Below are positions 46,917-48,583 of a stretch of DNA of 62,264 nucleotides, in pieces. The DNA comes from Vampirovibrionales bacterium. GTDB taxonomy: Bacteria > Cyanobacteriota > Vampirovibrionia > Vampirovibrionales > JAGQHJ01. Where the stretch lies: contig JANWIO010000057.1 of the NCBI GenBank assembly GCA_025449835.1, positions 1 to 62,264 of the forward strand, given 5' to 3'. Numbering within the stretch: position 1 is the first letter of the stretch; every line of letters begins with the position of its first letter. The notes below the pieces were generated by a model that was given only the letters and a program-made list of their open reading frames with translations, ran no database searches and was not told where the DNA came from. The translations under genes were made by a program, and so were the position numbers.

Positions 46917-47321
46917 TTATTTCCTTCCGACGTTAAATTTTTCCGCTAAAACCATCCTTAAACTGTTTTGGAAACGATCTTTAAAGCTTGAAGATTGGTT
47001 AAATACCTCACTTACTTGCGATGTCTCAGCGGTTTCCATAGCAGTGTCAAGGGAGGGGTCTGCTTCAAGTGTGGCCAAAAATTCTGTTTTGTCCACGGTG
47101 GTGGCAATCAAAAATCGTTGTTGGCCATATCGAACAATATAGAGGTTTTTCCTTGGTTCTAAGGTTAAAATCGATTCGATTTTTAAGCCATTGCTTTGCT
47201 TGGGACCATAGGTTTTCCCATTGATTTGGGGGTTTTGTTTGATATATAGATAAAGGAGGTAGAGTAACCCCACCACACTCATGGTGGTTAAGACAAAATT
47301 GAGGAGATAATGTCCCATCAT
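46917..47321 (-). CDS. fliO: FliO/FliZ-like protein
   Basis: N-terminal TM, LTLEPRKNLYIVRYGQQRFLI; ATGA overlap with the upstream gene; position before fliP. Confidence 0.75.
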   Translation of the reverse strand: MMGHYLLNFVLTTMSVVGLLYLLYLYIKQNPQINGKTYGPKQSNGLKIESILTLEPRKNLYIVRYGQQRFLIATTVDKTEFLATLEADPSLDTAMETAETSQVSEVFNQSSSFKDRFQNSLRMVLAEKFNVGRK

Positions 47322-48583
47322 GTCCAATCCTCCTCATCATCCAAATCTTCAAAATCCGATTCATCTAAATCCAGATCCATCAGTTCATTGGCTGCAGTTG
47401 TTTCTTTTGGCGGTTCTTCTTTGGCCAGATTGGAATTTGCCACGGCTTCTTCCGGTAAAGCGGAATTTGCCGCCTGAAGACTTTGTTCCATACGAGATGC
47501 TGCATCATGAAGCCCTTGAATTCGGACGCCAAATTTATCACCGACCACTAAAAGCTCACCCCAAGCAATGGATTGTCCTGCAACCTCAATGTTTACCTTG
47601 TTATCCATCAGGTCTCCGACTTCCACCACGAGGCCCTGTTCCATATCTTTGAGTTGTTTAAGTGGAATCTTAACAGCCGAAAATGCGGCTGTTACATCAA
47701 CCTCCAGGGTATCCCATATGTTTTGTTTTATTTGGGTTTCATTCACCATCGTGCTCGATCCTTGTTGCTGATATAAATCTGGTATTTGATGCCGTTCTGG
47801 AACTTTTACAGAAACGGTGAGATGTTGGTTGGAAATGGGATCAACCAACTGCCATTGCTGTGCTTGGCTGTTTTCAAAAAGAATGATGTCATCCGGTTCT
47901 AGTTGTTGAAGTTCTTCCAATGTTGCAATAGTCGTGCCCAACTGAAACCGACTTTCAACAGAGGCATTGAAGAATAATTCTTCATTACAATGCCATGTTT
48001 GTAAGGGTGGTAAGTCTTCAAAAAGCTTTTTGATGCAAGATTGAGGCGCTGTTAATACAATCTGATTGACCTGCTCCGGCTCACCTGCCAGGCTCCAGAC
48101 GACATGCATTAAGTAATCATCCTCAGGCGCAGGGGCTTTTTTCCCTGGATGTTTTAACATGGCGGGATAAATGGTTTGAAAAAGCTTCCGGCTAAAGCGT
48201 TCCAGTAAAAATATTTCAAAACTTCGGATATTCGCCAAGGAAAAATCCTGTTCTTCTAAGGATTTCCCTAAGGCGCCTTCAAACAAGTACTGACAAAGCC
48301 CTTCAGAAATCCGCAGCTGTGCCCAGCGTTTTCCCTCTTGATCGAGTCCCTTCTGGGCGACATAAAAATCTTGCATATGCCAAAAATAATGGGGTTCTTC
48401 GGCAATGCTCAAAATCCTTACTTTAGGCGAAAGGTTCCAAAAATATTGTATACACTGCTGTAAAGCAGCGCACAAATGGGATGAAATTCCCAATAATCGA
48501 TAAGGAGAGATTTTCGGTATCTCTACTTTCGGCTTTTGAAGGTATTCGGGATTTAAGGTCAGTTCTTCCATCAACGCACCCAT
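47318..48583 (-). CDS. FliM/FliN-family C-ring protein with two SpoA domains (SctQ-like architecture)
   Basis: SpoA1 ASVESRFQLGTTIATLEELQQLEPDDII; SpoA2 LEVDVTAAF...AWGELLVVGDKFGVRI; start ATG 48583 after GGGAGAG. Confidence 0.85.
   Translation of the reverse strand: MGALMEELTLNPEYLQKPKVEIPKISPYRLLGISSHLCAALQQCIQYFWNLSPKVRILSIAEEPHYFWHMQDFYVAQKGLDQEGKRWAQLRISEGLCQYLFEGALGKSLEEQDFSLANIRSFEIFLLERFSRKLFQTIYPAMLKHPGKKAPAPEDDYLMHVVWSLAGEPEQVNQIVLTAPQSCIKKLFEDLPPLQTWHCNEELFFNASVESRFQLGTTIATLEELQQLEPDDIILFENSQAQQWQLVDPISNQHLTVSVKVPERHQIPDLYQQQGSSTMVNETQIKQNIWDTLEVDVTAAFSAVKIPLKQLKDMEQGLVVEVGDLMDNKVNIEVAGQSIAWGELLVVGDKFGVRIQGLHDAASRMEQSLQAANSALPEEAVANSNLAKEEPPKETTAANELMDLDLDESDFEDLDDEEDWT

Follow-up and report, generated by a model that had tools for sequence, protein, structure and literature searches.

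Injectisome proteins of the SctQ family, among them YscQ, SsaQ, SpaO, Spa33 and HrcQ, share a mode of expression in which a C-terminal product is made from an internal start of the same gene, and this short form is needed for function or stability (PMC8553256, PMC4832279). In Shigella, the two forms of Spa33 associate in a 1:2 ratio, the long form contains an intramolecular pseudodimer of its SpoA1 and SpoA2 domains, and the authors regard the pair as functionally corresponding to free FliN together with a FliM-FliN fusion (PMC4832279). Mutant FliM::FliN fusions are on record as well (Kihara 1996, as cited in PMC4832279). Xanthomonas requires the internal ATG of HrcQ to be pathogenic when expression is at its native level, and the long form is stabilised by the short one (PMC8553256). 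Here we examine a 62,264-nucleotide stretch of DNA from a Vampirovibrionales bacterium (contig JANWIO010000057.1 of assembly GCA_025449835.1), referred to throughout as the window. On its minus strand, an SctQ-like gene heads a fliO-fliP-fliQ-fliR cassette and carries an in-frame Shine-Dalgarno (SD) sequence and ATG in the linker ahead of its second SpoA domain. A first-pass annotation had suggested that this gene undergoes tandem translation in the manner of sctQ. The precedent it cited is a real one, and comparison with homologues makes it quite probable that one mRNA yields both a full-length protein and a FliN-like protein of 143 amino acids.

The candidate internal start site and its conservation

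The minus strand around the site reads ...CAGCAACAAGGATCGAGCACGATGGTGAAT..., with the codons CAG CAA CAA GGA TCG AGC ACG ATG GTG AAT. Coordinates of this and all other features are collected in Table 1. Initiation at Met294 would give a protein that begins MVNETQIKQNIWDTLEV... and terminates, after 143 residues, at the stop codon at 47320-47318. Re-reading of the sequence returned the same positions for the AGGA core and the ATG, and the same product length, as the first-pass annotation had reported. Its placement of the site in the linker that precedes SpoA2 is borne out by the FliMN_C match at residues 307-373 and by a structural model of residues 204-381, both described below. Starts led by an SD are in use by this organism, including those of fliP and fliR in the same operon.

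DNA covering the site was available from 17 homologues, making 18 genes with that of the window; two loci added later, L019 and L020, bring the set to 20. Metagenome and genome scans gave nine loci. The homologous proteins are roughly 30-60% identical to the window protein in alignments. An SD core was defined as AGGA, GGAG or GAGG lying 5-11 nucleotides upstream of an ATG. The aligned ATG is present in 18/18 genes, and in 20/20 with the two later additions; the core is present in 17/18 and 19/20, respectively. The first-pass annotation had named loss of the SD and Met among relatives as the outcome that would tell against its proposal, and the reverse is seen.

In 15 of the 18 genes AGGA stands at the identical offset from the ATG. 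The codon pairs that produce it at the shared offset are CAA GGA (11), CAG GAG (2), GAA GGA (1), AAA GGA (1) and GAG GAG (1). L004 has TAT GGA G, which supplies GGAG, L013 has AGGAG shifted 3 nucleotides upstream, and L019 has CAGGAA followed by four ATGs. L020, a distant homologue with 32% GC, reads AAT GGA GGC AAT GAA ATG, that is, GGAGG plus 7 nucleotides. L009 has no recognisable motif (CAA GAT CTT CAC GCC ATG). In the window gene, the AAGGA at 47763-47759 is the 5' portion of the full SD complement TAAGGAGGT, so its 9-nucleotide spacer equals about 7 nucleotides after a full GGAGG, and the register of SD to ATG is near optimal.

Codon usage at the site points to selection at synonymous positions. 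The Gly codon of the SD is GGA in 13/13 genes, against a share of 17% for GGA among all their Gly codons; each of 11 further conserved Gly columns has GGA in 0-3 of its 12-18 sequences. The Gln preceding the SD Gly is encoded by CAA in 11/13, against a 51% background. Where the encoded residues are exchanged, the nucleotide motif is kept: Gln-Gly as CAA GGA, Gln-Glu as CAG GAG, Glu-Glu as GAG GAG and Gly-Gly as GGA GGC. When synonymous codons were resampled from each gene's own usage, the expectation was 4.0±1.5 genes with a core and none of the 5000 trials exceeded 10; the observed number is 17 of 18. At other conserved Met columns the core occurs in 0-4 genes. The mRNA around the site is also predicted to be open, with the 50-nucleotide window centred on the ATG ranking among the least folded of each gene (median top 5%), L009 included.

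The same signature appears in protein sequences across the wider family. A profile search over 1.84 billion representatives collected 167 clusters at E<=1e-30. In 117 of the 130 representatives with full context, a Met lies 5-22 residues ahead of a W[DE]xL motif. Residue frequencies, taken from 117 family representatives at 50% clustering or below, show Gly plus Glu at 59% at position -4 and 40% at position -3 relative to the linker Met, compared with about 10-20% at the other scored positions; Gln reaches 28% at -5. Met294 is at least 90% conserved within the variable linker, where the only other residues to escape variation are those encoded by the SD. The SD has left its imprint on the residues of the disordered linker.

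Two database records begin at this position. On the 656-nucleotide contig of P0166 (the same as L019), which begins 18 nucleotides before the ATG, the gene caller started a gene at the internal ATG. P0078 starts at the same aligned Met and is identical to the C-terminus of P0010. A split-gene version of the family, to which the short sequences P0078, P0155 and P0166 might have belonged, was considered and dropped; these are truncation artefacts, as judged from the DNA for P0166 only, with the other two looking alike.

Domain layout and relation to described families

The analysis of the full-length protein used 24 close homologues and the 167 family representatives found at the threshold given above. 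The reading frame is unbroken in every homologue examined. The true 5' start is more likely Met16 (48583) or Met20 (48571) than the first ATG (48628). In most homologues the first residue is the one that aligns with Met20 (MEGL...), and Met16 has GGGAGAG 3-5 nucleotides upstream. Met1 has no SD and overlaps the upstream open reading frame (ORF).

The AlphaFold model (24 homologues) has a per-residue confidence (predicted local distance difference test, pLDDT) above 90 across most of residues ~40-200. Foldseek matches this N-terminal domain to FliM in cryo-electron microscopy structures of the C-ring and to crystal structures of the FliM middle domain, with target-normalised template-modelling (TM) scores of 0.56-0.59 and E-values down to 2e-7. 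The CheY-binding peptide of FliM (LSQxEIDxLL) and its GGXG FliG-binding motif are absent in all 24 homologues. Neither the window protein nor 22 of the other 23 homologues contain the CheC phosphatase motif ([DS]xxxExxNx22P); the sole match, at residue 148 of P0004, is not conserved.

The C-terminal half appears to contain two SpoA-type domains. The second was recognised as PF01052 (FliMN_C) at residues 307-373 with an E-value of 3.9e-18. Its sequence matches in the PDB are FliN of Thermotoga maritima (1o6a/1yab) and a Salmonella FliM::FliN (4yxb), with E-values of 1e-12 to 1e-13, and by sequence it is nearest to FliN. The first is divergent and was not detected by Pfam FliMN_C. It lies within the match to the TIGR02551 SctQ model, which covers residues 187-372, and a precomputed Pfam match to PF28396 (SepQ_C) is on record for the protein. 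The full-length monomer model was poor in confidence over the SpoA region, and a second model was built for residues 204-381 from a sub-alignment. This sub-model shows two beta-rich SpoA-type domains (residues ~223-275 and ~309-373) with pLDDT of 75-92, joined by a low-confidence stretch at residues 284-302 that holds Met294. Its best PDB match is an engineered FliM(SPOA)::FliN fusion, 4yxc_B/4yxb (E-value 6.5e-7, TM score 0.56-0.62).

After SpoA2 comes an extension of about 60 residues that closes in an acidic tail with the motif DLDESDFxDLDDEEDW[TS] (DFDDLDDEEDW in the window). F426 and W435 are invariant, and Asp or Glu is at least 90% conserved at positions 425-434. Classical SctQ and FliN are not known to have such a tail. 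It may be a docking peptide. The domain matches and the two-SpoA sub-model together therefore indicate a predicted layout of FliM-middle-like domain, SpoA1, disordered linker, SpoA2 and ~60-residue tail.

The protein scores below every curated cut-off to which it was compared. For SctQ it reaches 64.4 against 100.8 bits with TIGR02551 and 36.3 against 230 with NF005956; for FliM it reaches 25.4 against 219.6 bits with TIGR01397, and then through its SpoA part only; for FliN, SpoA2 reaches 60 against 84.05 bits with TIGR02480. FliY scores are far under their cut-offs. We set aside a classification of the system as flagellar or injectisome from its gate proteins, since FliP exceeds the cut-offs of both fliP and SctR/EscR while FliQ and FliR reach neither kind. 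None of the secretin SctC, SctD, SctK and the needle protein SctF was found in the window, and homologous loci are alike in this. By its predicted mechanism the gene would work like sctQ; with scores under all cut-offs, the FliM motifs absent and no injectisome neighbours, it is not a curated SctQ, FliM, FliN or FliY. "SctQ-style" accordingly denotes a mechanism and not family membership, and the gene is best described as representing a distinct FliM::FliN-type (SctQ-like) family tied to the fliOPQR cassette.

With injectisome SctQ proteins (YscQ, SsaQ, SpaO, Spa33 and HrcQ) it shares a predicted layout of N-terminal domain, SpoA1, linker and SpoA2, an SD and start codon placed in frame some 10 residues ahead of SpoA2 within that linker, and a predicted FliN-like short product. 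It differs from them in heading fliO-fliP-fliQ-fliR with no injectisome-specific gene in the window, in a SpoA2 nearer to FliN than to SpaO, Spa33 or HrcQB, in the ~60-residue extension with its acidic tail on both predicted products, and in a Vampirovibrionales host rather than a proteobacterial or chlamydial pathogen. Many flagellar operons have fliM-fliN upstream of fliOPQR, and the SctQ-like gene likewise sits directly upstream of fliO-P-Q-R; it resembles FliM and FliN also in the FliM-middle fold and in having the FliM(SPOA)::FliN fusion as best match to its two-SpoA part. In contrast to the separate fliM and fliN, each homologue consists of a single uninterrupted ORF. The CheY-binding peptide and GGXG motif of FliM are missing, and the FliN layout occurs not as a stand-alone gene but in a predicted 143-residue product with an added ~60-residue tail. 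A further difference from flagellar fliM and fliN is that Vampirovibrio chlorellavorus has separate canonical copies of these elsewhere (PMC4451040).

FliY of Bacillus, Thermotoga and Helicobacter is similar in placing a C-terminal SpoA domain after a CheC/FliM-like domain, and weak fold and profile matches were obtained; FliY has one SpoA domain rather than the two predicted here, and the CheC phosphatase motif is not conserved here. The HrcQA/HrcQB pair of Pseudomonas syringae also provides a separate FliN-like SpoA2 polypeptide, as is predicted in our case, and the C-terminal domain of HrcQB (1o9y) gave a weak match. Unlike HrcQA and HrcQB, the two products here would share one ORF.

Probable tandem translation and its alternatives

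Because the internal SD and start codon are kept in nearly all relatives, tandem translation in the style of SctQ is strongly supported. The proposal of the first-pass annotation thus gains from the conservation of SD and ATG, from the evidence of synonymous-site selection and from the SctQ or FliM::FliN layout; the short product itself is deduced from these.

Several points weigh against this reading. A search for sequencing runs over 46900-48700 returned none. Taken alone, the occurrence in the window gene is not beyond chance. Among the long ORFs of the window, 8 of 355 internal in-frame ATGs (2.3%) carry an SD core, and the SctQ-like gene has 11 internal ATGs, so one SD-preceded ATG is expected in about 1 of 4-5 such genes (1-0.977^11), and a single occurrence is not significant. 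It is the position-specific conservation among homologues that makes the site significant. Those homologues are related, and counts taken from them are not fully independent, a concern tempered by the free synonymous variation at other Gly and Gln columns, which speaks for saturation having been reached. L009 (1-304) is alone in having no recognisable SD; it keeps the ATG and the unstructured mRNA context, has a second ATG five codons downstream, and may initiate independently of an SD. The A-rich linker, rich in Gln, Asn and Thr, could by itself lower mRNA structure. On the protein side, sequence support for SpoA1 is weak, its alignment to SpoA2 being in register with an hhalign E-value of 0.006, and the confidence of the SpoA1 model is moderate, with a domain arrangement that is a monomer prediction.

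Conservation of the linker segment might instead reflect a motif that acts in the protein, as a contact, cleavage or recognition site, with no internal initiation. Such a motif would account for the conserved Met294 and for the preferred residues at -5 to -3, but would leave unexplained the universal GGA and the CAA preference at synonymous sites, the dissimilar replacements (Gly, Glu, Gly-Gly) that preserve AGGA, GGAG or GGAGG, and the excess over synonymous resampling. The segment is, moreover, predicted to be disordered, and we consider a protein-level motif very unlikely. Just as improbable is a role for the SD-like sequence in pausing elongation, so that SpoA1 could fold or assemble before SpoA2 emerges. 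The motif does lie exactly at a domain boundary. SD-induced pausing is contested, however, and a pause site explains neither the invariant ATG 7-11 nucleotides downstream (20/20) nor the unfolded mRNA; initiation at sites of this type is established for homologous proteins that share the layout (PMC8553256, PMC4832279).

Two further alternatives concern the source and the present use of the signal. The short product could come mainly from a transcript of its own, driven by a promoter inside the gene, which would make it a nested gene. We think this very unlikely: nothing speaks positively for it, and no sigma-70-like promoter is found in 46800-49100, compared with 4.4 expected in shuffled sequence, by a consensus that may not fit this lineage. 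The SD and ATG would be used either way, and only the source of the mRNA differs. The site might also be an inert relic, the start of fliN left behind by an ancestral fliM-fliN fusion and no longer used. The FliN-like character of SpoA2, and the position of the gene where many flagellar operons have fliM-fliN, agree with such an origin. An unused signal would be expected to decay, yet this one persists, with synonymous-site selection, down to ~30% protein identity and from 32% to 60% GC, which makes a relic extremely improbable.

Under tandem translation, the product of the gene would belong to the cytoplasmic pod or C-ring of a Vampirovibrionales type III export apparatus. Initiation at the 5' start would give the full-length protein of about 417-421 residues, and ribosomes binding the internal AAGGA and starting at the ATG at 47749 would give the 143-residue protein of SpoA2 plus tail. 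Judging from Spa33, SpaO, YscQ and HrcQ, the short protein would probably homodimerise. Such a dimer could bind to the pseudodimer that SpoA1 and SpoA2 make within the long form, in a 1:2 ratio of long to short, and binding would stabilise the long form; the resulting assembly would recruit a FliH/FliI-type ATPase complex. The production, stoichiometry and role of the short protein are what we infer from these better studied counterparts.

The fliOPQR cassette, its relatives and their significance

The genes downstream of the SctQ-like gene were identified by Pfam and NCBIfam models (Table 1). The fliO ATG (47321-47319) overlaps the stop codon of the SctQ-like gene by 4 nucleotides (ATGA), which suggests translational coupling of the two genes. 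The strong SD of fliO lies in the final codons of the acidic tail, and the nucleotide conservation of the tail may serve that SD in part. The FliQ homologue has 179 residues, of which the Bac_export_3 domain covers only residues 5-75, and a C-terminal extension of about 90-100 residues is conserved in length in homologous cassettes (165-183 residues in total).

Table 1. Features of the SctQ-like gene and the downstream cassette, in window coordinates
Feature	Position	Strand	Basis or remark
SctQ-like / natural FliM::FliN-like gene, 436 codons from first ATG	47318..48628	-	ORF
N-terminal domain, FliM-middle / CheC-like fold, residues ~40-200	48029..48511	-	AlphaFold and Foldseek
SpoA1-like domain, divergent, residues ~215-275	47804..47986	-	TIGR02551 span, hhalign, sub-model
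Disordered inter-SpoA linker, residues ~279-304	47717..47794	-	pLDDT <50 in both models
Internal SD core AGGA	47762-47759	-	within CAA GGA, Gln289-Gly290
Spacer TCGAGCACG, 9 nucleotides	47758-47750	-	between AGGA and internal ATG
Internal start codon ATG, Met294	47749-47747	-	in frame; codon 294 of ORF 47318..48628
Predicted short product, 143 residues: 11-residue leader, SpoA2 (FliN-like), acidic tail	47318..47749	-	translation
SpoA2 domain, FliN-like, residues ~305-375	47504..47716	-	Pfam PF01052
Acidic C-terminal tail MDLDLDESDFEDLDDEEDWT, common to both predicted products	47321..47380	-	conserved
SD for fliO, GAGGAGGA	47328..47335	-	tail codons GAG GAG GAT
Downstream cassette fliO-fliP-fliQ-fliR	44896..47321	-	Pfam and NCBIfam
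fliO-like	46917-47321	-	Pfam/NCBIfam
fliP	46269-46910	-	Pfam/NCBIfam
fliQ, ~90-residue C-terminal extension	45712-46251	-	Pfam/NCBIfam
fliR	44896-45705	-	Pfam/NCBIfam

The five-gene order recurs at homologous loci amid unrelated neighbourhoods, with the first four of the genes present on the short contig L020. At one locus, an additional 88-residue gene with no Pfam match stands between fliP and fliQ (L011:12368-12634). The relatives located in genomes stem from metagenome-assembled genomes of Vampirovibrionales and Vampirovibrionaceae, including V. chlorellavorus. No further flagellar or type III secretion genes were found among ORFs of at least 150 residues in the window; the other ORFs in this size range are housekeeping genes (recA, priA, recG, accA/D, serA, alr, H+-PPase) or have no Pfam match. 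Directly upstream of the SctQ-like gene, overlapping its first ATG, is a 123-residue ORF (48622-48993, minus strand) with no Pfam or NCBIfam match. Upstream neighbours vary by locus, with a response regulator in L010 and L014 and a BatA/VWA gene in L015, and the 123-residue ORF is probably not part of the cassette.

Other features of the window were noted in passing. Two large TPR-repeat proteins adjoin the cassette, and a third TPR protein, of TPR/NHL type, and an ankyrin-repeat protein are encoded elsewhere (regions 41983-44887, 31423-32334 and 12174-12938, all on the plus strand); a TPR gene adjoins the cassette in locus L005 of V. chlorellavorus too. The ORF at 35304-36671 (minus strand), in a chromosomal housekeeping context, matches the erythromycin esterase family over its full length (PF05139, E-value 6e-135).

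The published V. chlorellavorus genome lists a 'spoA'-fliO-fliP-fliQ-fliR cassette (2600256627-631; Table S3, PMC4451040). A TPR gene four positions from it in that table matches our locus L005, where the cassette occupies L005:5908-9901. The canonical flagellar set of the same genome comprises fliP-Q-R-flhB-flhA and flgB-C-fliE-F-G-H-I, with separate fliN and fliM genes beside fliL-motB-motA (PMC4451040). Second copies are present for flhA, flhB, fliH, fliE, fliF, rod genes and hook genes, and a second fliG, fliM or fliN is not among the genes in Table S3 (PMC4451040). With no second fliM or fliN, the SctQ-like protein would thus alone supply the C-ring or pod-type component to a second set that contains FliO; the makeup of this set is drawn from one published gene table and local synteny. 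No paper in the library searched takes up the second set, and nothing relevant came up on injectisomes or a second type III secretion system in Melainabacteria or Vampirovibrionia, on FliM-FliN fusions that occur naturally, or on internal starts in fliY. We raise as a tentative suggestion, itself rather doubtful, that the family provides the pod or C-ring protein of an undescribed second, flagellum-derived type III apparatus in Vampirovibrionia and related low-GC lineages. The SctQ solution, in which a FliM::FliN fusion is joined by a FliN-like subunit from an internal start, would then occur beyond the injectisome clade as well, in a system that has retained FliO and whose SpoA2 is FliN-like. 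Such a system would represent either an intermediate between flagellum and injectisome or an independent convergence.

The mechanism is already known, and the SctQ-like gene extends it. Internal initiation in sctQ has been demonstrated experimentally in only a few proteobacterial pathogens. The family described here is FliN-like and FliO-associated, and its hosts are predatory, non-photosynthetic relatives of Cyanobacteria. Across at least 167 sequence clusters, the SD is conserved strictly enough to fix a synonymous codon and to bias the residues of the linker, and the comparative support is unusually clear. The gene is now named merely "FliM/FliN family protein", and its annotation should therefore add the predicted nested product of 143 residues. 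An architecture of long and short forms in a 1:2 ratio would not be limited to injectisomes; this bears on the origin of SctQ from fliM and fliN, and the origin of the SctQ arrangement becomes testable. The gene also directs attention to a second, so far unstudied type III apparatus in Vampirovibrio, whose species V. chlorellavorus grows in co-culture with Chlorella.

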